A stretch of 64,000 nucleotides of DNA. It comes from Candidatus Gorgyraea atricola. GTDB lineage: Bacteria; Omnitrophota; Gorgyraeia; Gorgyraeales; Gorgyraeaceae. The translations under genes were made by a program, and so were the position numbers. Below the pieces are notes generated by a model. It was not told the origin of the DNA. It worked only from the letters and a program-made list of their open reading frames with translations, and made no database searches. Shown piece by piece: positions 5,037-29,832 of this stretch; the first letter of the stretch is position 1; every line of letters starts with the position of its first letter. The stretch lies in assembly GCA_030765235.1 (NCBI GenBank), contig JAVCCW010000030.1, positions 8,144 through 72,143 of the forward strand, read 5' to 3'.

Positions 5037-6451
5037 CTTAGATAGTCATGTATCGCGCGGGCGGCGCGTTTGCCTGCGCCCATTGCTGCGATTACTGTGT
5101 CATCACCGTATGTGGCGTCGCCGCCAGCGTACACGCCTTTTAGATTCGTTGCTTGTGTCTCTGGATCCACAACTACCTTATTCCACTTATCGACTTTTAG
5201 TTCAGGTGTTGCTTTTAAAAATACTGGATTTGGGCTCTGGCCGACTGCCACTATAACTGTATCGACATCCATAGTAAACTCTGATCCCTCGATTGGGATC
5301 GGCCTTCTCCTGCCAGATGCGTCAGGCTCGCCCAGCTTCATCTTCACACACTCCATGCCTTTCACAAAATCCTTTTCATCCCCGAGTATTTTTTTAGGAA
5401 GCGTTAATATGTGCAGCTCGATCCCCTCTTCCTTCGCGTTCTCTACCTCTTCTCTTCGCGCAGGCATCTCTTTTTCTGAGCGCCTGTAAACTATATAGAC
5501 TTTTTCCGCGCCAAGCCTGAGAGAAACGCGGGCCGAGTCCATTGCAGTGTTGCCGCCGCCAATGACTGCCACACGTCTTCCTATATTTATAGGTGTGTCG
5601 TATTCTGGAAAAAGATACGCCTTCATTAGATTCGCCCTTGTTAAAAGCTCATTCGACGAGTAAACCCTGTTAAGATTCTCGCCTGGTATTTTCATGAAAC
5701 TCGGCAGTCCCGCGCCTGTACCAATAAAAACAGCCTTGTACCCCTCTTCGTACAGTTCCTTTAACGTCGAAACCTTCCCTACTATAAAATTCATCTTGAT
5801 CTCAACACCTAAAGACTTCAAATATTCTACTTCCTTTTTTACAATATCCTTGGGCAAGCGAAACTCAGGAATACCATAGACCAATACTCCTCCTGCAGTA
5901 TGCAATGCCTCAAATACAGTAACGCGATACCCAAGCCTTGCCAGATCCCCTGCGCAAGTAAGCCCAGCCGGCCCAGAACCAATGACTGCTACTTTAGCCC
6001 CACTCGTCCTTGTCCCTTGTCCCTTGTCACTTGCCTGCCCCGTACGAAATCTTTGATTTTCGTATGGGGTCCCTTCTTTAAGCTCCCAGTCTGCAGCAAA
6101 CCTCTCAAGCCCGCCTATATTTATAGGTGTCTTTTTCGCAGCCAGTACACACACGCCCTCGCATTGATCTTCCTGCGGGCAAACCCTGCCGCACACGCCA
6201 GGAAGATTATTTTTCTCTTTGATGATCTTAATGGCATCGTCGAATTTCTTATTTTTTATAGCTTCAATAAAACGCGGTATGTCTATTTCAACAGGGCACT
6301 TCGTCGAGCACCTGGGTTTTTTACAAAAAAGGCATCGGCTGGCTTCATTGACAGCCTCCTCCTGAGATAATCCAAACGCCACTTCATTGAAATTCTTGGT
6401 CCTATCTTTGGCGTTCTGCTTCTTCACTGTAATATCCCCCTTATCTTGCAC
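5000..6451 (-). CDS. nfnB: NfnB/GltD-like flavoprotein (glutamate synthase small-chain / SudA family), FAD/NAD(P) plus 2x[4Fe-4S]
   Basis: Cys cluster CLFCKKPRCSTKCP...CPQEDQCEGVC, dinucleotide fold KVAVIGSGPAG and a second GxGxxA. Lies downstream of a PyrK-like partner. Confidence 0.75.
   Translation of the reverse strand: MQDKGDITVKKQNAKDRTKNFNEVAFGLSQEEAVNEASRCLFCKKPRCSTKCPVEIDIPRFIEAIKNKKFDDAIKIIKEKNNLPGVCGRVCPQEDQCEGVCVLAAKKTPINIGGLERFAADWELKEGTPYENQRFRTGQASDKGQGTRTSGAKVAVIGSGPAGLTCAGDLARLGYRVTVFEALHTAGGVLVYGIPEFRLPKDIVKKEVEYLKSLGVEIKMNFIVGKVSTLKELYEEGYKAVFIGTGAGLPSFMKIPGENLNRVYSSNELLTRANLMKAYLFPEYDTPINIGRRVAVIGGGNTAMDSARVSLRLGAEKVYIVYRRSEKEMPARREEVENAKEEGIELHILTLPKKILGDEKDFVKGMECVKMKLGEPDASGRRRPIPIEGSEFTMDVDTVIVAVGQSPNPVFLKATPELKVDKWNKVVVDPETQATNLKGVYAGGDATYGDDTVIAAMGAGKRAARAIHDYLRRNDKCPITKSQ
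6004..6073. repeat. composite (CCCTTGT)n plus CCCCGTACGAAATCTTTGATTTTCGTATGGGG palindrome, in frame in nfnB
   Basis: Reads GTPYENQRFRTGQASDKGQGTRTSG immediately before the KVAVIGSGPAG FAD motif. Confidence 0.75.
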
Positions 6452-7938: not shown

Positions 7939-8901
7939 TTACCTCAGCATTGTGATATCGCCGGCAAGGACGCGCTCGTTAAAACCAGAATCGAGCCTCA
8001 ATATAAGGGCCCCATCCCTATCCACATCTATGGCCTGGCCTGATATAAGCCTATTATGATAATTTATCTGGACGCGCCTGTCAAGCACTGCGGATAACTT
8101 TTTATATTCGGACAAAATGTCGCCTATCTTGCCTTTATTGAATATTTTATAGTATCTGTCAAGATTGACTAAAACTGTTTTAACAAATTCCAACCTTGAA
8201 ACCTGACAATGTCTTTCTTCTGCAAGAGATGTAGAGCCTTCAGGCAATAGTTCCTTTTTCGTATTTATATTAATACCTATCCCAGCTATAACAAAATTGA
8301 TCTTATCTGTTTCGCCATTCAATTCTGTCAATATACCGCACACCTTAAGGCCATTTATAAGAATATCGTTCGGCCACTTAATATATGCGGAAAGTCCTGC
8401 TGTTTCCCGCGCTGACTTTGCAACACTAAGCGCTGAGATAAGCGTGATCAAGGACACCTCTCTTGGCAAAATGTCCGGCCTTAATATTATTGAAAAATAA
8501 GCACCCTTGCCCCTTGGCGAAACCCATTTTCGCCCGAGTCTGCCGCGACCCTTTGTCTGATACTCTGCCACTACTACTGCGCCCTCTTTTTCGCCAGATA
8601 TAGCCAGCTCATGCACCGCGTCATTGGTAGAAGATATCTCTTTATAGGAATAGATCTTTTTACCTATTATCTCGGTCTTAAGATCTCGCCTCAACTCGAT
8701 CGAGCTCAAGATATCTGGAAGCGCCATTAATTTATAACCAAGGTGTGGAGACGCCATGATGTCATACCCTTCTTCACGCAGTTTTTCAATGTGCTTCCAT
8801 ATAGCTGTGCGCGAAACACCAAGCGCCTTGCTCAACTCTTCGCCCGAGGCATATTTATCTTTTCGCTTTTTAAAAAAATCTAATATCTTCTCGTCCATCA
8901 T
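7939..8901 (-). CDS. birA: bifunctional biotin-protein ligase / biotin operon repressor
   Basis: N-terminal HTH ([27 protein letters not shown]) plus BPL catalytic region (GRGRLGRKW). Confidence 0.85.
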
Positions 8902-16071: not shown

Positions 16072-17298
16072 CTATCCCTTCTTCCCTAATCCAAACGCCT
16101 TGTGAAGCGTCCGGACTGCCTCCTCTGCGCGCTTCTTCTTTATCACGCACGATATCTTTATCTCAGAGGTCGAGATCATGTCTATATTAATCTTTTTTAA
16201 GGCCAGGGCCTGAAACATCTGCGCTGCTACTCCTGAGTGACTCTTCATACCAATGCCGACTATGGAAACCTTTGCAATGTCATTGTTATAAATCGCGCCC
16301 TTTGCCTTTACACCTTTCACTATCTTGTGCACAACCTGCTTGGTCCTGGCAAGCTCAGCAAGAGGCACTGTAAAAGAAACATCTGTATAGCCTGTCCTTG
16401 ATATATTTTGAATTATCATATCAACGTTTATATCTGCCTTTGCCAGATCCTTAAATATGACTGCTGCTATACCTGGCCTGTCAGGCACATCACATATAGT
16501 TACTTTTGCTTCGCCTTTATTTGCGGTAACACCGCTAACAAGAACATCTTCCATTGCCTTGACCTCCTCAGAAATAATAGTTCCCTGTTTATTGTTAAAA
16601 CTCGAACGTATGTGCAGCGGTACGGAAAATTTCTTCGCGACTTCCATTGACCTCGCCTGCATAACCTGCGCGCCCAGCGACGCCAGTTCAAGCATCTCTT
16701 CATAGCTTATGCGCGAAAGCTTCTTCGCATCCTTTACGATCCTTGGATCAGCAGTATAAACGCCCTCCACATCGGTATATATCTCGCACACCTTTGCCTT
16801 GAGCGTCTTGGCAAGCGCCACTGCTGTAATATCTGAACCTCCGCGGCCAAGCGTTGTGATCTCCTGCTCAGGATTTATACCCTGAAAACCAGCCACGATA
16901 ACCACCTTGCCTCTTTTTAGTTCTGCCTTTATTTTGCCAGCACTGACACCCACGATCCTTGCCTTTGTGTGGCTGTCATCTGTCATGATACCTACCTGCG
17001 CGCCGGTAAAAGAGATGGCTCCCACGCCCATCCTGTGTAACGCCATTGCCAGGAGCGAAACAGAAACCTGTTCACCCGTAGATATAAGCATGTCTATCTC
17101 TCGCTTGCTCGGCACAGGCGTGATCTCGTGCGCGAGATTCATGAGTTCATCTGTAGTATCTCCCAGCGCAGAAACCACCACCACAAGTCCATAGCCATTC
17201 TTCTTGTACCTGGCGATCCTCCTGGCTACATTCTTTATCCTGTCTATATTAGCGACAGAGCTCCCGCCGTATTTTTGTACGATTAAATTGTTTCGCAT
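16072..17298 (-). CDS. lysC: aspartate kinase
   Basis: MRNNLIVQKYGGSSV kinase N-terminus, two C-terminal ACT domains, 408 aa. Confidence 0.85.
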   Translation of the reverse strand: MRNNLIVQKYGGSSVANIDRIKNVARRIARYKKNGYGLVVVVSALGDTTDELMNLAHEITPVPSKREIDMLISTGEQVSVSLLAMALHRMGVGAISFTGAQVGIMTDDSHTKARIVGVSAGKIKAELKRGKVVIVAGFQGINPEQEITTLGRGGSDITAVALAKTLKAKVCEIYTDVEGVYTADPRIVKDAKKLSRISYEEMLELASLGAQVMQARSMEVAKKFSVPLHIRSSFNNKQGTIISEEVKAMEDVLVSGVTANKGEAKVTICDVPDRPGIAAVIFKDLAKADINVDMIIQNISRTGYTDVSFTVPLAELARTKQVVHKIVKGVKAKGAIYNNDIAKVSIVGIGMKSHSGVAAQMFQALALKKINIDMISTSEIKISCVIKKKRAEEAVRTLHKAFGLGKKG

Positions 17299-17997
17299 CT
17301 AAGCCTTCTTTTTTTAACTATCGTAAAAACATCAAAAACCATCGCGCCTGCCATTGCAATAAGCACGATTGAAACACTTACCAGCGCGAATTCTTTGTCT
17401 TTTATAAAATGCACTGCCTGATATAAAAGCGCTCCTATAGAGGTAACAAGCATAAAGACAGCTGGTAAAAAAGTAAACTTAATGCTTTTTCCTCTACACA
17501 AAAGCCAGCTCGATATCACCACAAAGCTAAGCGCTGCCACCAGCTGATTGCTGGCGCCAAATACAGGCCAGATCTTGCCCCATTTACCGCTTAGGGCCAA
17601 AAGACCACTGATAAATATTACCACAAAGGTAGAAAAGAATCTATTCTTTATTTTAAAAAGTTCTTCGGATAAGTACCTGCATATCCTTGTCGCTGTATCT
17701 AATGTCGTAAGGATGAATGCGTTAAGTATCATCACTGCTACAAGGCCACCATCCCCAGAGCGCTACACCTATAATAGGCCCTACGATCGGCCCTGCTCCG
17801 GCAATGCTCGCAAAATGATGACTAAAAAGGATTAACCAATTCCTGGCAGGTACGTAATCCACGCCGTCATAATACTTGTGGGCAGGCGTCACGTTTTTGG
17901 GATTTACTTCAAAGAATCTCTCTATGATCCGGGCATAAAAAAAATACCCGGCTCCGAGGAACACGAGCGAGGCTAGGATTACTGTGAGTGAATTCAT
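17283..17997 (-). pseudogene. cstA: carbon starvation protein CstA remnant: two out-of-frame fragments (17722-17997 N-terminal, 17283-17735 internal)
   Basis: Fragment 1 carries CstA N-terminal blocks (DYVPARNWLILFSHHFASIAGAGPIVGPIIG). Fragment 2 carries AFILTTLDTATR. Together ~240 aa versus ~600-700 aa for intact CstA, with a frame change at 17722-17735. Confidence 0.5.
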
Positions 17998-19245
17998 CTA
18001 TCGGATAAAGAATTCCATCAATTCGTAACCGCGGTCAATGCGGAATTTGGTCGAACGGGCCTCTTTCTCGTTAAAATACAGGATATCATCCTGCTCTATG
18101 TCAGTACCATACATCGCAAAACACACGTGATCGCGCGAATGTGTCCTGAGAGAGATGGGTGTCGCGTGATCAGAGGTAACAAGTATCCTGAATTCCTCTT
18201 TCGAAGACTTAAAATGCTCCAGCACTGTCCCGACGACAAATTTGTCAAACTTCTCAATGCTCGTGATCTTCTCTTTTAGATCCCCGTTATGACCAGCCTC
18301 GTCAGGCGCCTCCACATGCACAAATACAAAATCCCTATCCTTAAGAGAATCGATCGCATACTGCGCCTTGCCCAAATAATTCGTATCATAATAACCAGTT
18401 GCGCCAGGCACATCGATCACCTTTAGCCCAATGATCTTACCTATACCTTTAATAAGATCCACTGCTGAAATGATAGCGCCTTCTATCTTGTACTTCTCTG
18501 AAAACTTCGGCATGAATGGCCTTGTGCCTTGTCCCCATAGCCAGGTCGCATTCGCAGGATTTTCTTTCAGATCCAACCGCACCCTATTTACCTCGTGACT
18601 CAGCAGCACATCCCTGGAATCATCCATGAGCCTCTTTAAAAATTCAGCATAGTCACCTTTTTTCGGAAGACGAGGATCTATCTTTTTGCCGATAATGTCA
18701 TGCGGCGGCGCGCACTTCACCTTCATAAGCCCCTTTAGCTCATCTTTATTGTTGCACCTCAATATAAGCAAATGTCTATAGCTCATGCCCGCATAAAATC
18801 TTATATCTTTGGTACTCATCTTGGCATTCAGTTCATCAATAAGATGCCTGGCCTCTTCGCTCGATATATGGCCTGCGCTATAATCCGCCATCCGCCCGTT
18901 AGAAATAGTCACGAGATTGCACCTGAATGCTATCTCGTCGTCCTTCATATCTATGTCCATATTCGCTGCCTCGAGCGGTCCGCGGCCTGTATAATACTTG
19001 CGCGGACTATATCCTAATATAGAAAGATTTGCAACATCACTTGCAGGCGCAAAACGGCCAGGTATCATATTCGTAAGTCCGACCCTGCCCTTCTCTGCAA
19101 TAAAATTCATATTAGGGGTCTTGGCTGCCTCAAGAGGCGTCTTGCCTCCAAGTTCCTCCAGCGGCCTATCTCCCATACCATCGCCGACTAAAACAATATA
19201 TTTCATCTGCGCGCCCTTCTCTTTTTTATCTTCCCTTTTTTCCAC
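17998..19245 (-). CDS. ApgM-type cofactor-independent phosphoglycerate mutase family protein (possible non-orthologous homoserine kinase)
   Basis: MKYIVLVGDGMGDRPL...KTPLEAAKTPNMN metalloenzyme N-terminus, 415 aa, archaeal-type iPGM family. Confidence 0.75.
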   Translation of the reverse strand: MEKREDKKEKGAQMKYIVLVGDGMGDRPLEELGGKTPLEAAKTPNMNFIAEKGRVGLTNMIPGRFAPASDVANLSILGYSPRKYYTGRGPLEAANMDIDMKDDEIAFRCNLVTISNGRMADYSAGHISSEEARHLIDELNAKMSTKDIRFYAGMSYRHLLILRCNNKDELKGLMKVKCAPPHDIIGKKIDPRLPKKGDYAEFLKRLMDDSRDVLLSHEVNRVRLDLKENPANATWLWGQGTRPFMPKFSEKYKIEGAIISAVDLIKGIGKIIGLKVIDVPGATGYYDTNYLGKAQYAIDSLKDRDFVFVHVEAPDEAGHNGDLKEKITSIEKFDKFVVGTVLEHFKSSKEEFRILVTSDHATPISLRTHSRDHVCFAMYGTDIEQDDILYFNEKEARSTKFRIDRGYELMEFFIR

Positions 19246-21383
19246 GCCCTGAAAAATGCCTCTACTACAGCAGGGTCAAACTGTGTGCCCACGTTATCCT
19301 TGAGCTCTTTCAATGCCTGCTTCCCTGGCAATGCCTTTCTGTAAGGCCTGTCAGATACCATGGCATGATATGCATCCACAACAGCTATAATGCGAGACTC
19401 GATAGGGATCTCCTCGGCCTTTAGCCCGTCAGGGTAACCACTGCCATCATATTTTTCCTGATGGTGTTTGATTATAACAGCTACCTTTCTTAATCTAGCA
19501 ACAGGCTCCACGATCCTGGCGCCTACATCACAGTGCTGCTTCATTATGCCCCACTCCTCAGAACTGAGTTTCTTCTTTTTATTCAATATCGCGTCAGGCA
19601 CGCCTATCTTGCCTATATCGTGCAAGAGAAGCGCGACCTTTAATTCCTCCATATCAATGCTTGATTTCTGTAATTCAGGGAGCTCATTCGCAACTATCAT
19701 CCCATATTTTGTGACCTCATCCAAATGCCCGCGCGTATAAGAATCCTTCTCATCCACGGTCTTGGCCAGCGCCAACACTGTCTCGAAATGGTTCTTTTTT
19801 TCTTTCTCCCTGAGATTTTCCAGTTTGAGAAAATTCTTCGCATTCTCTATGGCAATAGCGACTTCGTTTGAAAGAGTGGAAAGCAGGCTGATCTCTTCAC
19901 TTGTATAAGGATCTCCCGAGAACTTCTCACCCAGGATCAAAAAACCTGTCAGATCCTTATTCCAGAAACTCGGCATACAAACCTGGCAACCCAACCCCCT
20001 TAATTCACGCTTTAGCTTCTTTTCTCCAACGCCCACGCTTGTATACAGGAGAGGCTTTACCTCTCTCTTTAACCACATAGGTACTGGATGATCACTCCCT
20101 AAAACACACCCTTCCAGGTCCTGGTTATCGCCTCGACGAAATCTTAAAACAAAGTCGCGCGTTTTCTCGTCATATAAAAAAATACAGACACTGCTCGAAC
20201 GCATGTATTTTTTTACAATTCGCGCTATTAGATTTATTAATTTCTGAAGATCAGTTATGAGCACCATGCCGCTACTTGCCTGTACCAGCATGCGCTCATA
20301 TGAAAACCTCTTCTGGAATAAAAATCTGTCTGTCAGCCTTACCAGGAGCCATTCCAGCGGCCTTATTGAAAACACTATGATGAGGACTGCTACGAGTTGA
20401 ATATGACGCGCCCAGTCAAATCTACTATAAAGGGCCTGCTGTATATGAAACACCGCGGATATAAAGCCAAAAAATACAAGCGTAAAGATAAACCAGAAAA
20501 TAAGCTTACGGCCGATCAAATGCCGTTTTTTAACAGTGACCTTTTTTTCGAGCCTCTCTGGCTCGACATACAGATTGTGCATTATGGCTGTGGCGCGCAC
20601 TATCCTGCCGAGCTTATCCATCTCCTCTGGCGCTAATTCAAGAGTAGCTGGATCAAACAATCCTCCTATAAAAGATGTCCCCTCTGTTTTATGTTTATCT
20701 TCAGCGCCTGGCGGCATACCATAAAGTATTACATCCTTTGGTGGTTCTGGCAGTCTTGTAAATCTCTCAGCCAGGTCATACAGCCTGAACATCCCTATAT
20801 CACTTAAAACAATGTTAGGCTTAAACGTCTTTATCTTCTTTAAGACCTCTTCTTTTGTAAAAGCGACGTCCAGCTGATACATGCCCTTGCAGCGCTCCTT
20901 ATCCTGGAAATACGCAAGTTTTGGACTGTACATTATCTTGTTCGGTTCTATAAAAAGAAGCCTTGCCTTGGTCAAGATATTAGAATCCTCAGTTAATTCT
21001 GAAAAACGCCCTCCATCGTATTTCTTTCGAGAAAGGGTCGTTTCTACAATGCTCGCGAGTGTCGCGACTGAAAAGGGTTTGTTTAAAACAGCGTCGCACC
21101 CTATTTTTTCTATCTCTTCCTTATAGTCATCCAAAAAACCTGAAAGCATAACAGTCTTGACGTCAGGATGCGCCTCCCTTACCACCTTCAGGACCTCCAG
21201 GCCGTCTACATCCGGTATTTGAATGTCTAAGAGGATCAAGTCAAACCTGCGTTCATTCAAATATTTTATTGCCTCCTGACCTGAAAAGACAACGCTGACC
21301 TCATAACCCTTTGAAACAAAGAGGTCCTTCAGTGTCAGGGCAATGACCTTTTCATCATCGACTATCAAGATGCGCTTGCTCAT
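19203..21383 (-). CDS. response regulator: receiver domain, membrane segment, GAF-like region, HD-GYP phosphodiesterase
   Basis: N-terminal REC (ILIVDDE...DLILLDIQIPDVDG), central hydrophobic stretch, C-terminal HD-GYP (HDIGKIGVP...HHQEKYDGSGYPDGL). Confidence 0.75.
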   Translation of the reverse strand: MSKRILIVDDEKVIALTLKDLFVSKGYEVSVVFSGQEAIKYLNERRFDLILLDIQIPDVDGLEVLKVVREAHPDVKTVMLSGFLDDYKEEIEKIGCDAVLNKPFSVATLASIVETTLSRKKYDGGRFSELTEDSNILTKARLLFIEPNKIMYSPKLAYFQDKERCKGMYQLDVAFTKEEVLKKIKTFKPNIVLSDIGMFRLYDLAERFTRLPEPPKDVILYGMPPGAEDKHKTEGTSFIGGLFDPATLELAPEEMDKLGRIVRATAIMHNLYVEPERLEKKVTVKKRHLIGRKLIFWFIFTLVFFGFISAVFHIQQALYSRFDWARHIQLVAVLIIVFSIRPLEWLLVRLTDRFLFQKRFSYERMLVQASSGMVLITDLQKLINLIARIVKKYMRSSSVCIFLYDEKTRDFVLRFRRGDNQDLEGCVLGSDHPVPMWLKREVKPLLYTSVGVGEKKLKRELRGLGCQVCMPSFWNKDLTGFLILGEKFSGDPYTSEEISLLSTLSNEVAIAIENAKNFLKLENLREKEKKNHFETVLALAKTVDEKDSYTRGHLDEVTKYGMIVANELPELQKSSIDMEELKVALLLHDIGKIGVPDAILNKKKKLSSEEWGIMKQHCDVGARIVEPVARLRKVAVIIKHHQEKYDGSGYPDGLKAEEIPIESRIIAVVDAYHAMVSDRPYRKALPGKQALKELKDNVGTQFDPAVVEAFFRAWKKGKIKKRRARR

Positions 21384-21619
21384 CCCTTGGTCAATTCCTT
21401 TCTTAAGGACTTTACTATCTCACCTATCTTCAAAGCATACTCCTCAAAATCATTTAAAAGCTGCACGAGTTTCTTCTTCTCGTCTTCTAATTTTTCTGGA
21501 TCAAGGCCTTTTGTCTCTAACTCATGCCTTGTCAGACCTGAGACTATCGTGATCTTGTTGAGCCAGTTATTCAGACTATGAAACTCTTTTCTCAGCGGAC
21601 TAAGCACTGTATCCTCCAT
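21380..21619 (-). CDS. small hypothetical protein inside the phosphorelay operon
   Basis: 79-aa ORF exactly filling the gap between the two receiver genes; no recognisable motif. Confidence 0.35.
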   Translation of the reverse strand: MEDTVLSPLRKEFHSLNNWLNKITIVSGLTRHELETKGLDPEKLEDEKKKLVQLLNDFEEYALKIGEIVKSLRKELTKG

Positions 21620-21988
21620 TTACTTTCCCTCCAGTAGTTTTTCTATGGTTTCTGTTAGACTCTTCAATGATGTGGGCTTGCTTAAAAAGGCATCTGCCCC
21701 AAGCGAGAGACAATTATCCTTTGCGTCATCCTCTTCTCCAAAGCCAGTAAACATGATCACCTTTATATCAGGCTTCAGCATCTTTGCTACCCTTAAGATC
21801 TGCGTGCCTGTCGGCCCTTCTTTTAAATGCAGATCCAGAACCATAAGATGCGGGTTATTTTTCTTCAATAGCTCGAGCCCTGAATCCCCATCTGTAGACG
21901 TGAACACCTGATACCCCTTCACTGTTAAAAAATCTGCTATATTCTTTAACAAGGCCTCTTCATCATCTACTATAAGTATCTTGTGCAC
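21620..21988 (-). CDS. single-domain response regulator (CheY-like receiver)
   Basis: ILIVDDEEAL...HLMVLDLHL...FTGFG receiver signature, 122 aa. Confidence 0.8.
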   Translation of the reverse strand: MHKILIVDDEEALLKNIADFLTVKGYQVFTSTDGDSGLELLKKNNPHLMVLDLHLKEGPTGTQILRVAKMLKPDIKVIMFTGFGEEDDAKDNCLSLGADAFLSKPTSLKSLTETIEKLLEGK

Positions 21989-24198
21989 TATTCCCCCCTC
22001 TTCTTTTTTCTTTTCTCGATAGGTAATTTAATGATAAAAGTCGCGCCCTTGCCATATTCAGACTCGCACCTTATCGAACCGCCGTGCATTTCAATAAAAT
22101 CCCTTATAACATACAGTCCCAGGCCGCTCCCTTTATTTGAGGTGGCCTTTGTTGTAAAATAAGGCGTGAAGAGTTTTTTCTGGCTTTCCTTTGTAAGGCC
22201 TGTGCCATTATCCTTTACCTGGACTGCAAGTATATTGCCTTCTCTTTTTAAGTTTACGATTACCTCGCCCTGGGTCATAACTCCGGCTTTTTCCTTTAAG
22301 GCATCACATATAGCATCAAACGCATTATCTATTAGATTGTAAAAACAGTCCTGCAGGAGCGCTTCACTTCCGAATATAACTGGTATATCGTTTAAAAATT
22401 TCAATTTAAACTTAGGCTCCTTAAATCCTCCGATCCCTGATCGCGAATGACTTATAAGAACAAGGCGGTATGCGTTTTCAATCAAGTTGCGCACATTCAC
22501 CTTTTGAAAATCCACCTTTGCCTTTGCCCTTTTTAATATTGCGGAGGTGATCTCTTTACCTTTATATACCTCTTTATCTATAAGTTCCAATGTGCTCTTT
22601 GCATCCTTTAAAACAGCCTTCACCTTTTCATCATTCACCTGATCCATCTTAAGCCCTTCAAGTTTCATAAGTAAAAGCTCAGCTGAAGAACTTATGGCGA
22701 CCAGACGATTATTAAACTGGTGACTCGCGCCAGGCGCCATATCTGCCAGGGCCTCCCTGCGGGATTTCTCGACTAAGACCATCTTTTCCTTTTGGTGAAA
22801 CTGCGCATTCTCAACTGCCAGGCCTACTTCGTTAGACAAAACCATCAAGAGATTCAGGTCCTCCTGGGTAAACGCTGCATTTGTTCTTTTATTAGAAAGG
22901 ATCACAAAACCTATAAGATCATTCCGTAAGAATGATGGGATTACGCTGTTTGCTTTTAGATGCGAAAGAGAGTTTATCAGTTCTTTTACATGAGGAGAAA
23001 CGCCCTTTGGCGCAAAAAGCCTTATCTCTTCTGTTACGATCGGAAGTCTCCTCATATAAAGATCCTTGATCAAAGCAGAATCTTTAGAAAATTCCCTGGT
23101 TGGCTCAAAAGTAGAATCCAAAGGCTGCATCGGCCTCCAGTAGTTCTTCAGTATATACTTATCCCTTTTGGCATCGAATAAATATATAGCAGCAAATTTG
23201 AGCTTCAAAATCTTGACCAGCTGATGCACTATCAATTTCAAAAGATTATTCAGATTTGCAAACCGAAGCATATTATGCGAAAGCCGCCTAAGGGCCTCTT
23301 GCGATTTAAACTCCTCAGCTCTCAATCTGGATTCGATCCTTTTCTGGAGTTTCATATAGATAAACGGGCCAAGGCTAGCCAAAAGCGCCATTAAAAATAC
23401 AGGCAAAAGCCACCAGCTAGAAGTTGCTCTGGATAAAGGCTCCTTAACCAAACCGCCGAGTCCAAATGGGATGCCTAAGACCACTGCATATACAAAAGCA
23501 AAAATACCTGCACGGGTGAGGGCAATGTTTACATTCATTATACGAAAACGGACGATTGCATAACTAATTGTCGCTAAACCTGCTAAAACAAATATAGAGC
23601 CAAAAGGATAAAATTCAAACCCATAATTAGGTAAGAAATCTATCGAACCTATGCTTGCAATTATGTATGCTATAAATATATATTTTATTTTATTATATTC
23701 TATAGAAGCAATGAACTTGTTTTTCTTGAAACCAGAATACAGCATACCAAGACAATAGAGATATAAAAAGCCATAACCTAATAAAAATATATTATGCAAG
23801 AAACCAACTTTCGTTTGATATCCCCAATAAAATTCATAAAAACCTGAAACAATTTGATCAGTTGTAATTGTTAAAATAACAAAAATAAAACCTACTAAAT
23901 AAACTAAAATAGTAAACTTCTTCTTTATTATCCCTAAAAAAGCAATGGTAAAATGATAAAAACAAACAGGAATAAATATAACTCCTACATAAGCAAATTT
24001 ACACCAAAAAATGGCATCTTCGGGCTTACTACGCGAATATACGACAAAGTATCCTAATAACCAAACAGAAACACTTATGCATTCAAATAGAAAAGTCCTA
24101 TTAATAAGCGATCTTGTGTTTTTGCTAAAAGCAAAGAAGCCTATAAATAAATATATGATACTTATGATTAAAGGTTGTATGGTATAAATAGTTATCAT
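21988..24198 (-). CDS. sensor histidine kinase with N-terminal multi-pass (7TM-like) membrane domain, GAF, HisKA, HATPase
   Basis: ~280 aa of repeated TM helices, then a GAF-like region, H-box SHQFNNRL and HATPase_c N/G boxes (DNGTGL...GSGLGL). Confidence 0.8.
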   Translation of the reverse strand: MITIYTIQPLIISIIYLFIGFFAFSKNTRSLINRTFLFECISVSVWLLGYFVVYSRSKPEDAIFWCKFAYVGVIFIPVCFYHFTIAFLGIIKKKFTILVYLVGFIFVILTITTDQIVSGFYEFYWGYQTKVGFLHNIFLLGYGFLYLYCLGMLYSGFKKNKFIASIEYNKIKYIFIAYIIASIGSIDFLPNYGFEFYPFGSIFVLAGLATISYAIVRFRIMNVNIALTRAGIFAFVYAVVLGIPFGLGGLVKEPLSRATSSWWLLPVFLMALLASLGPFIYMKLQKRIESRLRAEEFKSQEALRRLSHNMLRFANLNNLLKLIVHQLVKILKLKFAAIYLFDAKRDKYILKNYWRPMQPLDSTFEPTREFSKDSALIKDLYMRRLPIVTEEIRLFAPKGVSPHVKELINSLSHLKANSVIPSFLRNDLIGFVILSNKRTNAAFTQEDLNLLMVLSNEVGLAVENAQFHQKEKMVLVEKSRREALADMAPGASHQFNNRLVAISSSAELLLMKLEGLKMDQVNDEKVKAVLKDAKSTLELIDKEVYKGKEITSAILKRAKAKVDFQKVNVRNLIENAYRLVLISHSRSGIGGFKEPKFKLKFLNDIPVIFGSEALLQDCFYNLIDNAFDAICDALKEKAGVMTQGEVIVNLKREGNILAVQVKDNGTGLTKESQKKLFTPYFTTKATSNKGSGLGLYVIRDFIEMHGGSIRCESEYGKGATFIIKLPIEKRKKKRGE

Positions 24199-25490
24199 TT
24201 GTTTCGAGAATAGATTTTTTTAAAATATGAAACATTGTTTAAGAGCACTTTATCATCGTAAATAGTTTTATATACTTTTAGTAGCCCGTTTTGTAATTCG
24301 ATAGCAGACATATGTTTAGGGATAAAATTTACATCCCAAAAAGTATAATTATCCCAATTAAAAGATAGCAATCTATTCTCGTCTTTTAATCTTTCCCTTA
24401 GCCGAGTACCTGGTAAAGGAGTTAAAATAGTAAGTTGTGACGCATATATATGATTATTTATAATGAACTCTGCTGTGTTTTTAAAAACAGTTGTATCATC
24501 GTAATCAAAACCTAATACAAATGCTCCTATTATACCCATCCCTGCCTCTTGAATTTTCTGTATATAATCTTTATACTTGTCCAACATCCTAATTTTAAAA
24601 CCTGCCCTATCTACCGACTCCAAACTTTTTCTTGTAACAGATTCAAAACCTATAAATAAAAAACGACACCCACTTTTCTTCAATAATGCAAGCAATGCCT
24701 TATCCTTTGCTATTGAAATATCAGTCTGCGTCATCCATCTAATCTTTAAAGGAATTAATTTCTCTAATAATTCAAAAGCGTATTTCTTGTTCACAAACAT
24801 ATTATCATCACCAAACCCTATCCAAGGATTTTTAAAAATTGACTTTATTAATTTTACTTCTTTAATTACCTGTTTAATGGATTTGTGTCTAAATTTTGTC
24901 CCAAAAAGTCTAGACGCAATACAAAATTCACAATTATGCGGACATCCACGTGTTGTTTGTATCCAAATAGTCTTATAATTTTCAGGATTTAATAGCTCAT
25001 ATTTCGGGATTGGTGATTTTTCTAAATCAAAAGAGCGTGTAGAAAAATAAAAAGGTTGTGTATTGTTTTTTAAAAAATCATTTATAAATTGTGGCCAAGT
25101 TTCTTCTGCCTCACCTACAATTACACTATCACAATGCTCCTTGGCTTCTTTAGGTAAAATAGTGGCATGAATACCTCCAATTACTACTTTCACATTTCTC
25201 CTTCTAAATTCATCTGCAATCTGATACGCCCTCTGAGCCTGCTGAGTCATGGCAGATAATACTATCAAATCATAGCCCATATCAAAATCAATTGGCTCTA
25301 AATTTTCATCGATCAATTTACACTTCACATCTTTTGGCATTAATGCCCCGATTATTAATAAACCCGTACTCAGACCAGACCAAAAACGACTATAAAATTG
25401 TCTTATTTGATTCTTTTCCCAAAATTCTCTAAATTTAATATCTTTGCTAAAAAATGTTCCCTTTGGAGATATCAGAGCGACTTTTATCAT
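24195..25490 (-). CDS. B12-binding-domain radical SAM protein (class B)
   Basis: N-terminal cobalamin-binding Rossmann-like region and CxxxCxxC radical SAM motif TTRGCPHNCEFC. Confidence 0.8.
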   Translation of the reverse strand: MIKVALISPKGTFFSKDIKFREFWEKNQIRQFYSRFWSGLSTGLLIIGALMPKDVKCKLIDENLEPIDFDMGYDLIVLSAMTQQAQRAYQIADEFRRRNVKVVIGGIHATILPKEAKEHCDSVIVGEAEETWPQFINDFLKNNTQPFYFSTRSFDLEKSPIPKYELLNPENYKTIWIQTTRGCPHNCEFCIASRLFGTKFRHKSIKQVIKEVKLIKSIFKNPWIGFGDDNMFVNKKYAFELLEKLIPLKIRWMTQTDISIAKDKALLALLKKSGCRFLFIGFESVTRKSLESVDRAGFKIRMLDKYKDYIQKIQEAGMGIIGAFVLGFDYDDTTVFKNTAEFIINNHIYASQLTILTPLPGTRLRERLKDENRLLSFNWDNYTFWDVNFIPKHMSAIELQNGLLKVYKTIYDDKVLLNNVSYFKKIYSRNK

Positions 25491-25500
25491 ATGTCCTTCT

Positions 25501-26592
25501 TTATGCTTTCCGTCTAATATACTTCACATCCGCACAATACTTAAAGAGCCGCGAAAGCAGATCTTTGTCGATTACGGGCCATCTAAATTCTTTGCCGTTT
25601 ATGGCTGCGTCGAAGTTTTCAGCATCAAATATCACTGTACGATGATTAAAATATGGTAAATACGGCTCTATCACCTTTCTCCTGAAACCCTTTAGATCTT
25701 CAAAATGAAACTTTTGCTGCAATGTCAACTTGGGCTTTTGAAAACCAAAGTAAGAACTGGCCATCTCTAATAAGAAATCCAAGGCTATTGTATTAGGATT
25801 GGTCAGGTGATAATTTCTATTATTATTTTCCTTTTCGGACGATATAAGGTATATTGCCTGGGCCACATAATCTATAGGCACAAGATTATACCCGAGCGTC
25901 CTGTCAGCAGGGATCTCGTCAAATATTCCGAGTGAAAATATATGCAGAGGCTGGTAAAACATCTGAAAATTAGAGACCTCACCGGTCTTGGAATCCCCTG
26001 TTATTATGCTAGGTCGATATATGGATATAGATAGGCCTTTGTGTCTATATTCGGCTATCAACTTTTCTGCCTCAAATTTAGTCTCTTCATAAGTATTATT
26101 GAAACCCTGGCCTACATCCAGAGAGTCTTCATAAAAGATGCCACCAAACTTACCCACCACAGCCACTGTACTTATATGATGAAAAGAATCAAATTGATTA
26201 TTTTCATTGCACTGCAAGGCAAAATCCAGGACATTCTTTGTACCCAATACATTTATCTTTCTAATCGGCTCAAGCGGCATTCCAAATTCGCATAATGCCG
26301 CGCAATGATATATCGTCTCTATTTCTTTGCGTAGCTTATCGAGTGTGAATTTTTTAATCCCCATATCTTTCTTGGTTGTATCTCCATGCACGACCTCAAT
26401 TCTTTCATTTATGCCATCTCTCTTTGCCTTATCGTAACTCTTATTTATTAGCTTGGTTATCCTATCTTTGGCCTTCATATCTGAGTTTCCGCGGACAAGG
26501 AGATACAGCTTAGAATCCTGCTTTTTCAGCAAGTTCTTTACTATATCCCATCCCAAAAATCCTGTGGCCCCTGTAATAAATATATTCTTCAT
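25501..26592 (-). CDS. thioester-reductase / fatty acyl reductase (NAD_binding_4) family protein; track start 26649, MKNIFITGATG at 26592 preferred
   Basis: IFITGATGFLGWDIV Rossmann motif of TR domains and a catalytic YxxxK region. Confidence 0.7.
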   Translation of the reverse strand: MKNIFITGATGFLGWDIVKNLLKKQDSKLYLLVRGNSDMKAKDRITKLINKSYDKAKRDGINERIEVVHGDTTKKDMGIKKFTLDKLRKEIETIYHCAALCEFGMPLEPIRKINVLGTKNVLDFALQCNENNQFDSFHHISTVAVVGKFGGIFYEDSLDVGQGFNNTYEETKFEAEKLIAEYRHKGLSISIYRPSIITGDSKTGEVSNFQMFYQPLHIFSLGIFDEIPADRTLGYNLVPIDYVAQAIYLISSEKENNNRNYHLTNPNTIALDFLLEMASSYFGFQKPKLTLQQKFHFEDLKGFRRKVIEPYLPYFNHRTVIFDAENFDAAINGKEFRWPVIDKDLLSRLFKYCADVKYIRRKA

Positions 26593-27980
26593 TTTATCTT
26601 TACTGAGATCTTTCTGGGAATTTTGTAGATCGCCAGCCTCTCTTTGCAAAACGACTTTACATCTTTTTCTGTCACTTCTTTTCGTGAGGCGATCTCTAAT
26701 CGTGCATTGATCCTATGTCCCCACAAATCATCCGTTATAACATCCAGTTCTATATCCTTTGCCCCCGGGAAAGAAGACATTACATCTTTCACCTCCTTCA
26801 AATCAACATTGTTGCCCCCTATTTTGGCAATATCTTTCTTTAGGCCATTGAAATATATATACCCATCCTCATCCAGCTGCCCGTTATCTCCTGTATAAAA
26901 CCAGCCTTTTCTCAAAAATTTTTGATTCTCGCCGTTTTTATTATAATACCCCTGCATCACGGTTGGCCCGCCTATAAGGATCTCTCCGTCAGCGATCTTT
27001 ATCTCTACCTCATGTCCTGACACACCTAAGGAATCCGGCCTATTTCTTGATTTGGGATTACATGCTATCGGCATTGTCTCTGTCAGGCCATAACCCTGCA
27101 ACAACTCAATGCCCATCTCTTCTTTAATCGCTTTATGAATAGCTAACGGCATATAACTCCCGCCAGTAATGCCGTATTTAAGACTGCTTATGTCAAAGCG
27201 GCCCTTACTATAATTTTTAAGAAGAGAGATATACACTGTTGGTACAGCTATAATAAAGTCTATCTTGTGCGCCTCTATTACCTTGAGTATATGACTCGGT
27301 ATAAAACTTCGCGTTATGACTACAGTAGCCCCGCGCAACAGCGGCACGATCACACAGCTCACCAATGTGAAGATATGCGACATAGGAATGACCAATAAAA
27401 AGCGCTGGGCAGTCACGACTTCTGTAAGTCTTACATATCCGATGGCGCCGTGATGATAATTTCCATGCGTGAGCATTGCGCCCAAAGGTTTTCCTATGCC
27501 TCGATATGTATAGTTAATCGTAGCGACCTGATTATTGCTGGTGTTAAAATTCGGGAGAGGGCCCTCTTCTCCTATGCTTAACAATTCATTAATCTGTTTA
27601 TCAATAGCTATTATTAGCCTATCTTTACTAAGTATAGACGCGACCTTTTTGTCGTACAATGAAGAGGTAGTTATTATGCCTTTTGGCTTACAGTCATTGA
27701 AGATCTTTTTTAATTCAAAACTCGTAAGCTGTGGATTGAGCGGCACGCTTATGACATTTATCCTTGAAAGCGCATAGAAACTATATATGAACTCCTTGCA
27801 GTTTGGAAGAAAGATAACGATCTTATCGTCTTGCCTCAGCCCCATTTTTAAAAAGGCCTTTGCCAATAACTCAATATTCTTCCAAAGCTCGGAGTAAGAC
27901 ACCTTTACGTCATCCTGGATTATGCATGTCTTTTTTGACATCTTGGTTGATACCCAATGAAGTGAGGTGCCTAAGTTCAT
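26589..27980 (-). CDS. fatty acyl-AMP ligase / acyl-CoA synthetase family adenylating enzyme
   Basis: AMP-binding motifs INYTYRGIGKPLGAMLTH, YGLTET, YFTGDNGQLDEDGYIYFNGLKKD. Confidence 0.75.
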   Translation of the reverse strand: MNLGTSLHWVSTKMSKKTCIIQDDVKVSYSELWKNIELLAKAFLKMGLRQDDKIVIFLPNCKEFIYSFYALSRINVISVPLNPQLTSFELKKIFNDCKPKGIITTSSLYDKKVASILSKDRLIIAIDKQINELLSIGEEGPLPNFNTSNNQVATINYTYRGIGKPLGAMLTHGNYHHGAIGYVRLTEVVTAQRFLLVIPMSHIFTLVSCVIVPLLRGATVVITRSFIPSHILKVIEAHKIDFIIAVPTVYISLLKNYSKGRFDISSLKYGITGGSYMPLAIHKAIKEEMGIELLQGYGLTETMPIACNPKSRNRPDSLGVSGHEVEIKIADGEILIGGPTVMQGYYNKNGENQKFLRKGWFYTGDNGQLDEDGYIYFNGLKKDIAKIGGNNVDLKEVKDVMSSFPGAKDIELDVITDDLWGHRINARLEIASRKEVTEKDVKSFCKERLAIYKIPRKISVKIK

Positions 27981-27985
27981 ATACG

Positions 27986-28249
27986 CTATTTCTCCTTAAC
28001 ATAAAACATGACTAGATCTATCAGATCTCCAACAGTCACTATATCAAACGCCTTTGCCTCGTCAATCACTATACCTAACCTCTTTTCAACTGCAGCCAAT
28101 ATCTCCATTGCTGCTAAAGAATCAATGCCCAGATCATCTCTTATATCAGCGCTCTCCTTGACCTTTTTTACATCCATTCTTGCGATCTCAGCAACTAACC
28201 TTTTTATATCTTTCCTGATACCTGCTGCCTTAGAGGTTTTTTTAGCCAT
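27986..28249 (-). CDS. acyl carrier protein (phosphopantetheine attachment, DSL)
   Basis: 87 aa with DDLGIDSLAAMEI PP-binding motif. Confidence 0.7.
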   Translation of the reverse strand: MAKKTSKAAGIRKDIKRLVAEIARMDVKKVKESADIRDDLGIDSLAAMEILAAVEKRLGIVIDEAKAFDIVTVGDLIDLVMFYVKEK

Positions 28250-28259
28250 TTAGGTCTCC

Positions 28260-29570
28260 TTAATATTTATAGGTGAACCCCACTGCAAAAATATTCACGA
28301 ATTGTTCATATCTGCCGTCTATATCAGCATTACTGGTTGAACCTACGCCATTTGCTACATCTCTATCTTCGAAAAACAATGCAAGATATGAGATATCCAT
28401 TGTCATGTCTTTAAATGTATAACCAAATCCGCAAGTAATTCCATACCTGTCAGAATCAGGCAGAGCAGTGTCAAAATTTGCTTCAGATACAGGAGTTTGT
28501 TCATACATATATCCGCACCTTAGCTGTATCTTATCTGATGCGTCATAATTAACACCTATGCCAAGAGAAAACACGTCTTCCCAGTCCTTTGACGCTGGGT
28601 TACCGGCGTTTAAGATTTGGAGCTTTATGGGATGAGTTTCCGTCTCCCATTCTACCCAGTCTTGTACAACACTTGACCAACCTGTCCATTCCAAGTCAGC
28701 CTCGAAAGTTAATACATCGTTTACATCCCATGCATATCCTAAAGTAACAACCTCAGGAAGTGTCATGTCTGCCTTGATCGAGGTATCATAAGACGCGCCA
28801 AATAGTCCTGCAGTGGCATCAGCACCCAGGCCATTCAATGAAAGAGTGCCTTTTTGTGAAAAGTCTACCTCGCTCCTGTATGCTACAGCCAGTCTGTGCG
28901 AATCTTTAAAGCTATAAAGCATCCCCAAGTTATAGCCCCAGCTTTCATCATCAGCCTTAAGATAAAAATCACCGTCAGCCTCTACAGCAGAGCCACCTAA
29001 AAGCGTATTAACGCGTGTGACATTGAACTTCCTATACTTATTGACATTGCTTATCATATAGTTTAAACCAGCGCCGATTGATAGATTATCATTTACCTTA
29101 TATGCTACTGAAGGGTTTATATTCTCGACCCTCACATCTGATTCTGTGGCAACATACCGAGAATAGCTGTCATCTGGCCAGTCAGTGCCAAGTCCATATG
29201 GAATAGTAACGCCCAGACCAAATGTAAATTCCTCAAGGCCAAAGTCATCAACGAGGTAAAAATTTGGCACAAAAAAGCTCTGGCTTTCCATGTCTACTTC
29301 TCCTGCGCCTGTAGGCGTGCCTCTACCAATCGGCATCTCAAGGGTATAGCCTATACTTACTGCAGAACCGTCTAAATACGACATGGCAGCAGGGTTATAG
29401 TATACTGCTGCAGGATCATCTATCTGCGCAGCACCTGCTGAGCCCCTTCCCATACCTTTTGCGCTTACCACCTCATTCTTGAAGCCACCTGCGCCAACTG
29501 CAAAAGCTACATTAGTCGATACCATGATCAAAGTAAACAATAACAAGCCGCACCATAACTTCCTAAGCAT
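28260..29570 (-). CDS. fadL: FadL/TodX-family outer-membrane hydrophobic-compound transporter
   Basis: Signal peptide, then GSAGAAQIDDPAAVYYNPAAM N-terminal hatch motif; beta-rich sequence ending in aromatic FTYKY. Confidence 0.75.
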   Translation of the reverse strand: MLRKLWCGLLLFTLIMVSTNVAFAVGAGGFKNEVVSAKGMGRGSAGAAQIDDPAAVYYNPAAMSYLDGSAVSIGYTLEMPIGRGTPTGAGEVDMESQSFFVPNFYLVDDFGLEEFTFGLGVTIPYGLGTDWPDDSYSRYVATESDVRVENINPSVAYKVNDNLSIGAGLNYMISNVNKYRKFNVTRVNTLLGGSAVEADGDFYLKADDESWGYNLGMLYSFKDSHRLAVAYRSEVDFSQKGTLSLNGLGADATAGLFGASYDTSIKADMTLPEVVTLGYAWDVNDVLTFEADLEWTGWSSVVQDWVEWETETHPIKLQILNAGNPASKDWEDVFSLGIGVNYDASDKIQLRCGYMYEQTPVSEANFDTALPDSDRYGITCGFGYTFKDMTMDISYLALFFEDRDVANGVGSTSNADIDGRYEQFVNIFAVGFTYKY

Positions 29571-29764
29571 TACCCACCCCCATTTGTTTGCTGTTCACTC
29601 TCTTCTATCCACTTACTAATAGAATCCCTTCTTATTCTCCAGCTGGTACCTATCTTAAAAGCAGGGATCTTCCCGTTCTTCACATACTTGTAGATCGTCA
29701 TAGGATGCACATCCATATAGTCAGCCACATCCTTGATCGTTAAAATGTCCTTTGACTTAGTCAC
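29570..29764 (-). CDS. excisionase/MerR-type helix-turn-helix DNA-binding protein, GTG start
   Basis: LTIKDVADYMDVHPMTIYKYVKNGKIPAFKIG matches the TIGR01764-like HTH. Stop overlaps the fadL start; AAAGGAG RBS. Confidence 0.6.
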   Translation of the reverse strand: MTKSKDILTIKDVADYMDVHPMTIYKYVKNGKIPAFKIGTSWRIRRDSISKWIEESEQQTNGGG

Positions 29765-29804: not shown

Positions 29805-29832
29805 AGTATACTGATTTTATACCCTTTGTCAA
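29805..29832 (-). promoter_or_regulatory. sigma70-like promoter for the HTH-fadL-ACP-ligase-reductase-rSAM operon
   Basis: Minus strand reads TTGACA, 16-nt spacer, TATACT, about 35 nt upstream of the AAAGGAG RBS and GTG start of the HTH gene. Confidence 0.5.

Follow-up and report, generated by a model that had tools for sequence, protein, structure and literature searches.

A putative free-standing DHp hairpin in a candidate split phosphorelay ending in an HD-GYP protein, from the Omnitrophota bacterium Candidatus Gorgyraea atricola

The histidine phosphotransferases of multi-step phosphorelays have been described either as Hpt proteins or as pseudo-kinases with a degenerate catalytic and ATP-binding (CA) domain (PMC9981736; PMC5898713; PMC3433190). 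Among the latter, Spo0B of Bacillus, ChpT of the Caulobacter CckA-ChpT-CtrA system and PhyT of Sphingomonas are dimeric, act between two receivers, and carry the phospho-histidine on helix 1 of a kinase-derived dimerisation and histidine-phosphotransfer (DHp) hairpin, whereas Hpt proteins (Pfam PF01627; Ypd1, HptB and the C-terminal Hpt domains of ArcB and RpfC) are monomeric four-helix bundles with an HxxKG-type motif. Here, a 64,000-nucleotide stretch of Candidatus Gorgyraea atricola (Omnitrophota; assembly GCA_030765235.1, contig JAVCCW010000030.1, positions 8,144 to 72,143), referred to below as the window, was analysed for a cassette encoding a membrane histidine kinase, a single-domain receiver (REC), a 79-aa protein and a multidomain output protein that ends in HD-GYP (Table 1). 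With slightly better than even confidence, the cassette is interpreted as a split four-step His-Asp-His-Asp phosphorelay that would run from the kinase through the receiver and a DHp-only transferase to a REC-pseudoREC-TM-GAF-HD-GYP protein (TM, transmembrane). The computed basis consists of the domain assignments, the homology between the small protein and DHp domains, and the conservation of gene order, and these make a multi-step relay ending in an HD-GYP protein, as already put forward in a sequence-only reading of the window, the best interpretation of the cassette. It is the DHp-only family that appears to be new; the relay logic itself would, by analogy, be that of KinA-Spo0F-Spo0B-Spo0A and CckA-ChpT-CtrA, the first of which is mirrored by the split into kinase, receiver, transferase and output regulator (PMC9981736, PMC5898713, PMC3433190). 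According to the proposed mechanism, the kinase (HisKA_7TM plus two TM segments, GAF, DHp and CA) would autophosphorylate on H493 and the phosphoryl group would pass to D52 of the single-domain receiver; the 79-aa hairpin, which probably dimerises into a four-helix bundle, would accept it on H14 and hand it to D53 of the N-terminal receiver of the output protein, and this receiver would then modulate the HD-GYP domain, the activity of which is most likely cyclic-dinucleotide hydrolysis.

The 79-aa open reading frame (ORF) has no match in Pfam or NCBIfam, nor was a curated family for the hairpin found in either, but the same slot is held by five close homologues of 68-100% identity, which marks it as a real, conserved gene. 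Its product is identical to a hypothetical protein from a Candidatus Gorgyraea atricola metagenome-assembled genome, as is the kinase to another protein of that source. An exhaustive profile search covering 1.84 billion representatives gave a family of 22 proteins (about 22 representatives), almost all of 70-91 aa and labelled 'hypothetical protein' in the records examined. His14, N18 (H+4) and I23 (H+9) are invariant across this family down to 26% identity and F13, N21, G28 and E59 are nearly so, while H+1 is variable; the common motif is F13-H14-x-L-x-N18-x-x-N21-K-I23. The AlphaFold2 (AF2) model comprises two helices of ~36 residues (2-37 and 41-77; pLDDT 83). BLASTP of the protein against the window's own kinase pairs H14 with H493 in the H-box (E=0.004). 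The DHp columns of that kinase (residues 478-572), cut from an alignment of 22 HisKA_7TM-GAF kinases, were aligned by hhalign with the 22-member family over 67 columns and both helices (Prob 96.3, P=1.9e-9, score 51). A score of 49 was obtained when only kinases 30-37% identical to the window's kinase were used, as against 7-15 (P>=0.03) in controls made of the reversed alignment and 20 column shuffles. Beyond the family itself, the best hits of its plain hidden Markov model (HMM) fell in the DHp regions of kinases encoded nearby.

None of the 22 members matches any Pfam family, and PF01627 in particular is unmatched at E<=10 in 22/22. Because of the hhalign and BLASTP homology, the lack of an Hpt match and the two-helix model, the 79-aa protein is assigned, from alignments and predicted fold, to a free-standing DHp domain, a two-helix hairpin homologous to the DHp of HisKA_7TM-GAF kinases, and not to Hpt. 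The sequence-only reading had offered an Hpt or connector protein for this ORF and recommended profiling it for Hpt similarity: a histidine-phosphotransfer component in this conserved slot is likely, as judged from sequence, while the Hpt identity is rejected on the absent PF01627 match, the two helices of the model and the motif FHxLxNxxNKI. The hairpin would thus share with Hpt the proposed shuttling from receiver to receiver, but with two helices in place of four and F-H-x-L-x-N-x-x-N-K-I in place of the HxxKG-type motif. RpfC-RpfG, too, is a system with a REC-HD-GYP regulator at its end. Compared with Spo0B, ChpT and PhyT, the candidate phospho-histidine is also on helix 1 of a kinase-derived DHp hairpin and the protein takes the same place between two receivers, here by gene order only; it stops after helix 2, whereas the three transferases continue into a C-terminal degenerate, ATP-lid-like CA domain. 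No sequence match to Spo0B, ChpT or PhyT was detectable; the nearest relatives are DHp domains found in HisKA_7TM-GAF kinases of the same phylum. Of the Spo0B/ChpT definition, only the DHp part applies to the 79-aa protein. A published description of a DHp-only phosphotransferase was not found in the literature searched, which is absence of evidence only.

The order of the genes for the kinase, the receiver, the hairpin and the REC-protein is that of the proposed phosphoryl flow. Gene order was compared between the window and related loci (labelled L001-L028), and was found to be kept both in the clade of the window (L003-L013, L027: kinase, receiver, hairpin, REC-protein, in some cases GAF-HD-GYP, and ApgM) and in the distant loci L017, L022, L023 and L025/L026, more distant family members being those of 26-42% identity. 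The 122-aa receiver lies directly upstream of the small ORF across related loci; in almost every lineage compared, the hairpin gene comes immediately after that of a single-domain receiver, and a further receiver often follows. These arrangements include a HisKA_7TM kinase, receiver, hairpin and REC-X (a receiver followed by domain X, see below) in L023, receiver, hairpin and receiver in L017, hairpin and receiver in L022, and kinase, receiver and hairpin in L019/L020 and L021. L025/L026 have a HisKA_7TM kinase and a response regulator, then a 149-aa protein consisting of a tandem pair of hairpin units (family HMM E=1e-11), which is possibly a single-chain four-helix bundle, and then a 499-aa REC-ACP-REC protein with a PP-binding acyl-carrier (ACP) domain between the receivers; the genes for the double hairpin and the REC-ACP-REC protein lie at 7567-9542 in L025 and 4749-6724 in L026. 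The distant L024 encodes a HisKA_7TM kinase, a response regulator and GAF-HD-GYP and has neither hairpin nor REC-X; presence of the hairpin and of the second receiver therefore goes together, as expected of an extra His-Asp step, and this is consistent with their having been gained jointly. The hairpin of L016 (2043-4211) is fused in frame to REC-X-GAF-HD-GYP without a TM hairpin (722 aa; junction '...ggcaggATGcat...'), and this may be either a genuine Rosetta-stone fusion or an artefact of sequencing. As a separate observation, REC-X of L023 is followed by an extra single-domain receiver (136 aa) and an 84-aa ORF with the H-box-like sequence 'HHINNDLYMINL' (5165-5827); this ORF ('HHINNDL') was considered as a second hairpin member and rejected, having no match to the family HMM.

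Several observations weigh against the proposed relay. PDB sequences searched with profiles built from 5 or from 22 members of the family yielded nothing but coiled-coil noise, with no kinase, and a PDB fold search with the hairpin model returned generic or designed helical hairpins only (best E=0.14), with a chain of a Vibrio kinase at rank 34 (E about 2). Spo0B, ChpT and PhyT all keep the degenerate CA domain that the 79-aa protein lacks (PMC9981736, PMC5898713). The distant hairpin of L014 has flavodoxin, CutA and CcdA genes for neighbours and is the sole one with no relay gene close by, and L015 (receiver, hairpin, TPR protein), L018 (kinase, receiver fragment, hairpin) and L020, which are not truncated, have the kinase/receiver/hairpin set without a receiver gene directly downstream. 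The L016 contig, with its fusion, has a coverage of only ~3.6x, and in every member of the clade the HD-GYP motif HHExxDGxGYP reads HQExxDGxGYP, Q642 taking the position of H277 in PmGH. Lastly, the DHp domains of HisKA-type kinases are also phosphatases, and an invariant Asn at H+4 fits either role.

The last point opens the way to a different function, in which the hairpin would be a DHp-derived auxiliary phosphatase or phosphate sink that docks on the receiver or on the output REC, with the Asn at H+4 speeding dephosphorylation and with no onward carriage; the kinase would act directly on one of the receivers or on both. Isolated DHp domains of HisKA kinases are able to dephosphorylate their own regulators, and the Spo0E family provides small helical-hairpin receiver phosphatases. 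The triads of L015, L018 and L020 would then be self-sufficient, N18 is invariant where H+1 is variable, and PhyT, too, was first read as a phosphatase (PMC5898713). Yet His14 is invariant family-wide, as expected of a phospho-acceptor and not needed for a DHp phosphatase; the receiver-hairpin-receiver arrangement recurs, with the hairpin co-occurring with REC-X; and the Spo0E-like family PF09388 has no match at E<=10 in any member, the SQELD-type motif being absent. This function is considered unlikely. Sda, a known small helical-hairpin inhibitor of kinase DHp domains, suggests another role, that of a kinase-binding DHp mimic which, through a heterodimeric four-helix bundle or by blocking the receiver-docking face, would tune autophosphorylation or partner choice without contact with the phosphate. 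Such a role would suit a hairpin homologous to the DHp of its co-encoded kinase family, and a HisKA_7TM kinase is always near where the contig extends far enough. An inhibitor need not, however, keep the phospho-acceptor His and the whole H-box invariant, L011 and L017 retain receiver-hairpin-REC with the kinase neither adjacent nor visible, and the partner in the in-frame fusion is the output REC protein, not the kinase, so that such a mimic is judged very improbable. Both Spo0E proteins and Sda resemble the hairpin in size and two-helix shape and act on receivers or DHp domains, but they have no sequence relationship to the hairpin family, which is DHp-derived and carries an H-box. A phosphotransfer relay through the hairpin is the better-supported interpretation.

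The proposed donor is a kinase of which residues 10-223 match HisKA_7TM (PF16927; E=2.7e-15, 57.2 bits against a cut-off of 28.6), residues 316-464 GAF and residues 612-728 HATPase_c (84 bits) in Pfam. Two more TM segments at 225-282 were located by a hydropathy scan, and together with the PF16927 region they account for the membrane sensor of ~280 aa that had been described, although Pfam assigns it to HisKA_7TM instead of to the 7TMR-DISM or 5TM-LYT types that had been suggested for it. PF00512 (HisKA) is not matched by the kinase. The DHp region spans ~478-572, with H493 in 'SHQFNNRL' (nt 22725-22708) conserved across an alignment of 22 homologues (the window kinase and 21 others), and the N, G1, F and G2 boxes of the CA domain are kept (NLIDNAFDA, DNGTGL, FTPYFTTK and GSGLGL, respectively). 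The 166 homologues of the kinase are for the most part from Omnitrophota. It was also observed that H+1 of the kinase H-box (SHQFNN; window 22708-22725, residues 492-497) is Gln, with Q or E in relatives; HisKA kinases are usually acidic at this position. The 122-aa receiver matches Response_reg (PF00072; E=3e-22, 79 bits against a cut-off of 30.2) and keeps DD8-9, D52, T81 and K104; it is proposed, from these residues and its place in the cassette, as the first phospho-acceptor, in a position like that of Spo0F. The full D/D/D/T(S)/K set is thus present in both receivers of the cassette, since the receiver of the output protein (Pfam residues 5-113, 92 bits against the same cut-off), the proposed terminal phospho-acceptor, keeps it as well.

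For the output protein, a receiver-TM-GAF-HD-GYP architecture had been described, and all of these domains were found, but a conserved domain between REC and the membrane segment, here called domain X, had been overlooked. Domain X has no Pfam match. Its AF2 topology is (beta-alpha)x4 plus a helix (pLDDT 85-95), and it aligns in register with the protein's own REC by hhalign (Prob 86, P=4.8e-6). The acidic pocket is lost: E146-P147-N148 replaces the acidic pair, the Asp position is D or N in the family, and T and K are gone. Fold prediction and alignment make X a probable degenerate (pseudo-)receiver. REC-X is a separate protein of ~275 aa in most relatives, with GAF-HD-GYP encoded by another gene, and a search with X alone recovered 16 homologues, all of the separate REC-X type. 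Only the close relatives of the window have the TM hairpin; L009-L013, L016 and L027 lack it, encoding REC-X and GAF-HD-GYP either as two genes or as a fusion. The N-terminal receiver, GAF and C-terminal HD-GYP domains recall RpfG/'RpfX' and the GAF-HD-GYP protein PmGH (bioRxiv 10.1101/2021.11.05.467447), but the output protein inserts the pseudo-receiver and the membrane hairpin between REC and GAF, and most relatives are split into two genes. If X is receiver-like, as the hhalign probability of 86% and the predicted topology suggest, the output protein would resemble the PleD-type REC-REC' arrangement, in which a phosphorylatable receiver is followed by a degenerate adaptor receiver without the acidic pocket, ahead of a c-di-GMP-metabolising output; the output of PleD is GGDEF, as against HD-GYP here.

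The HD-GYP domain matches V-cGAP3 (5z7c, 1.7e-37), PmGH (4mcw, 1.6e-35) and PA4781 (4r8z) among PDB sequences. Aligned without gaps to these three structures, it keeps D547, H553, H588-D589, K592, H617, H641, G649-Y650-P651 and D670, and the set shared with PmGH that was tested (HD dyad, GYP, H189, H250, H276, D305, K225 and D183) is present in full. Tyr549 stands at the position of PmGH E185, so that the domain belongs to the Y/F subfamily, for which a binuclear site is predicted (PMC4159591). PmGH H277, the residue replaced by Q642, is a metal ligand, and its alanine mutant is essentially inactive (PMC4159591); the distant L024 homologue keeps HHE. A restoration of the HH pair by the preceding His ('KHHQE') was considered and rejected, since L001 and L013 have Tyr there. 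Next to the metal site, R192 and D308 of PmGH correspond to Glu556 and His673 in the whole clade (window 19365-19739, residues 549-673), an apparent compensatory charge swap as judged from the alignment. PmGH is thereby distinguished from the output protein by both the HQE motif and the E/H swap. Because the replaced His corresponds to PmGH H277, the c-di-GMP phosphodiesterase label of the sequence-only reading appears plausible but not secure: most catalytic residues are intact while one metal-ligand His has become Gln642, and the loss of catalytic residues that the same reading had named as its own test was found by careful alignment at the H277 position, so that the objection holds in part.

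The domain could alternatively have a role other than c-di-GMP hydrolysis, as a cyclic-dinucleotide-binding or interaction module or as a hydrolase of 3'3'-cGAMP or pGpG, with the relay controlling something else. The change from HHE to HQE across the clade, with HHE kept in L024, the near-inactivity of PmGH H277A (PMC4159591), a best PDB match that is the cGAMP-specific V-cGAP3, and membership of the Y/F subfamily without the E185 ligand all point in this direction, as do the documented inactive HD-GYP regulators HnoD and ECA3548 (bioRxiv 10.1101/2021.11.05.467447) and, weakly, the lack of a GGDEF motif in a motif scan of the single 64-kb window. HnoD and ECA3548, however, lost several motifs, not one (bioRxiv 10.1101/2021.11.05.467447); Gln is still able to ligate metal; seven other catalytic or metal residues, GYP and the substrate-binding R..Y are intact and strongly conserved; and the swap of R192/D308 to E/H looks compensatory, suggesting that the fold and the active-site shell are maintained. 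A departure from c-di-GMP hydrolysis is accordingly held to be a real possibility, if the less probable one, and cyclic-dinucleotide hydrolysis stays the favoured activity.

The kinase gene follows an acyl-ACP cluster, the last gene of which encodes a B12-binding radical SAM enzyme that is under the cut-off of every NCBIfam equivalog. The sequence-only reading had tied this cluster to the relay through the overlap of the radical SAM stop and the kinase start, and the ATGA is indeed read at 24195-24198; as an argument for co-transcription, the overlap is weak because nearly the whole 64-kb window is one-stranded with many 4-nt overlaps, including the one between the HD-GYP and ApgM-like genes. 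A terminator within 24195-24198 had been named as counter-evidence; no terminator-like site occurs at any cassette junction in the 14 kb scanned, and the minus-strand sites listed are inside coding sequence. A sigma-70-like promoter match sits in the gap of 81 nt that precedes the HTH_17 gene, the first of the cluster, and is a possible but weak candidate for the start of the transcription unit; the match counts of the promoter and terminator scan of 14 kb were not above those of shuffled controls. The proposed link to lipids is better served by comparative context, acyl-ACP or lipid genes lying directly upstream of homologous kinases in several lineages. The window's acyl-ACP cluster recurs in the same order in L004/L005, FadL-ACP-ligase-radical SAM plus an oxoamine synthase in L010, and HTH_17-FadL-ACP-ligase plus an oxoamine synthase in L027/L028; the L024 cassette is preceded by genes for an oxoamine synthase and PEMT and followed by genes for an MGDG-synthase-like glycosyltransferase and a lipid A acyltransferase, and upstream genes encode an NAD_binding_4 reductase in L025/L026 and an aldehyde dehydrogenase in L023. 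The last enzymes of the kinase-adjacent cluster thus vary, with an oxoamine synthase in relatives and a thioester reductase plus the B12 radical SAM enzyme in the window, where no oxoamine synthase was found by Pfam or NCBIfam and a sphingolipid-type long-chain-base cluster is accordingly not recognised. The alpha-oxoamine synthases of L010 and L027 have serine palmitoyltransferase as their best match, at 458-469 bits, below the NF047600 cut-off of 640; the synthase genes are at 3224-4426 in L010, 5782-6981 in L027 and 2337-3560 in L024.

This association, drawn from gene-order comparison, is suggestive, and because acyl-ACP and lipid genes recur beside homologous kinases a membrane or lipid-related cue is a reasonable guess for the kinase signal. 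The adjacency might instead be incidental, the relay being merely downstream of an unrelated acyl-ACP cluster and sensing something else. The crowding of nearly all long ORFs onto the minus strand, with 4-nt overlaps elsewhere in the window (e.g., at 8898, 11697, 37188 and 37859), would favour such a coincidence, and so would the equally tight junction of the HD-GYP gene to the ApgM-like gene and the conserved synteny of ApgM, CstA and aspartokinase genes, which indicates that gene order is generally stable in the clade. Among the relatives, the receiver/hairpin/REC core of L011 is found without kinase or lipid genes and has an ABC peptide transporter upstream, and a Shikimate_DH-like NAD-binding protein of doubtful lipid relevance is directly upstream of the kinase in L019. 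Against coincidence, differing lipid-type genes flank homologous kinases in lineages with no other shared synteny (L010, L024, L025/L026, L027/L028). Chance proximity is therefore a fair contender that we nonetheless lean away from, and the lipid-related cue is retained.

All four ORFs of the cassette are present on the minus strand where the sequence-only reading had placed them (Table 1). Their junctions are tight: the kinase stop TAG (21990-21988) and the receiver start GTG (21988-21986) overlap by 1 nt, correcting the ATG-TGA overlap that had been described at 21988; the ATG of the small ORF (21619) comes directly after the receiver TAA (21622-21620); direct reading of the sequence shows an ATGA at 21380-21383 shared by the stop of the small ORF and the start of the HD-GYP gene; and the ATG of the ApgM-like gene (19206-19204) overlaps the HD-GYP stop, again as ATGA. 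Synteny of the ApgM-like gene with the relay extends to all close relatives; the gene probably takes no part in the signalling. It passes the cut-offs of two families, cofactor-independent phosphoglycerate mutase and TIGR02535 ('proposed homoserine kinase'), and in relatives it is syntenic with an aspartokinase gene (window 17998-19206 and 16072-17298), which suggests a role in threonine biosynthesis. Across the 64-kb window, almost all long ORFs are on the minus strand, the GC skew stays near -0.2 from end to end, and overlaps of 4-8 nt occur at many gene junctions, the genome being very compact and co-directional here. A gene for the carbon starvation transporter CstA is broken (window 17283-17997) into a 91-aa N-terminal ORF (17722-17997) and a 150-aa C-terminal ORF (17283-17735), where relatives have an intact protein of 533-544 aa, and this points to an internal deletion, a pseudogene or an assembly error. 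The GC content falls to 0.27-0.34 at 23500-25500, over the 7TM-coding part of the kinase gene and the radical SAM gene, against ~0.44 on either side; this dip may come from the codon bias of hydrophobic residues or from recent acquisition.

Table 1. Features of the relay cassette and its surroundings, in window coordinates.
Feature	Coordinates	Strand	Basis or remark
ApgM-like metalloenzyme	17998..19206	-	NCBIfam PRK04200 and TIGR02535, both above cut-off
Output protein REC-X-TM-GAF-HD-GYP, 726 aa	19203..21383	-	
HD-GYP domain, residues ~535-722	19218..19781	-	Pfam HD/HD_5 at 552-706
GAF domain, residues 377-514	19842..20255	-	Pfam GAF, GAF_2, GAF_3, E ~1e-4, at or below gathering scores
Two-helix TM hairpin, residues 294-348, joining REC-X to GAF-HD-GYP	20340..20504	-	Hydropathy
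Domain X, residues ~137-270 (~140 aa)	20574..20975	-	
Receiver domain, residues 1-118	21030..21383	-	DD9-10, D53, S81, K102
DHp-like helical hairpin, 79 aa	21380..21619	-	
Single-domain response regulator, 122 aa	21620..21988	-	GTG start
Sensor histidine kinase, 736 aa	21988..24198	-	
B12-binding radical SAM enzyme, last gene of acyl-ACP cluster	24195..25490	-	Pfam B12-binding, Radical_SAM, DUF4070
Upstream acyl-ACP cluster, five genes	25501..29764	-	Pfam and NCBIfam
NAD_binding_4 thioester reductase	25501-~26600	-	
AMP-binding acyl ligase	26589-27980	-	
ACP	27986-28249	-	
FadL-family outer-membrane channel	28260-29570	-	
HTH_17 protein	29570-29764	-	
Sigma-70-like promoter match, TTGACA-16-TATACT	29805..29832	-	11/12; best of 14-kb scan

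Taken more broadly, and as a proposal put a little short of even, the FHxLxNxxNKI proteins (70-90 aa) may constitute a third structural class of histidine phosphotransferase, a bare dimerising DHp hairpin set between a dedicated single-domain receiver and diverse output receivers (REC-pseudoREC/GAF-HD-GYP, REC-ACP-REC), and driven by HisKA_7TM kinases that would monitor membrane-lipid or acyl-ACP status in Omnitrophota. The analysis gives a family without any Pfam or NCBIfam model a probable role, brings to notice an HD-GYP subfamily with a conserved HQE active-site variant, and ties HisKA_7TM kinases to acyl-ACP and membrane-lipid clusters in a phylum known almost only from metagenomes. The four proteins would also offer a tractable system for DHp-receiver recognition, as the homologous kinase DHp and free DHp must pick different receivers. 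If the 79-aa protein works as a phosphotransferase, a DHp hairpin alone would be enough for a His-Asp-His-Asp relay; it would then be the smallest such relay component known, and the evolution from kinase to transferase would have discarded the whole CA domain.

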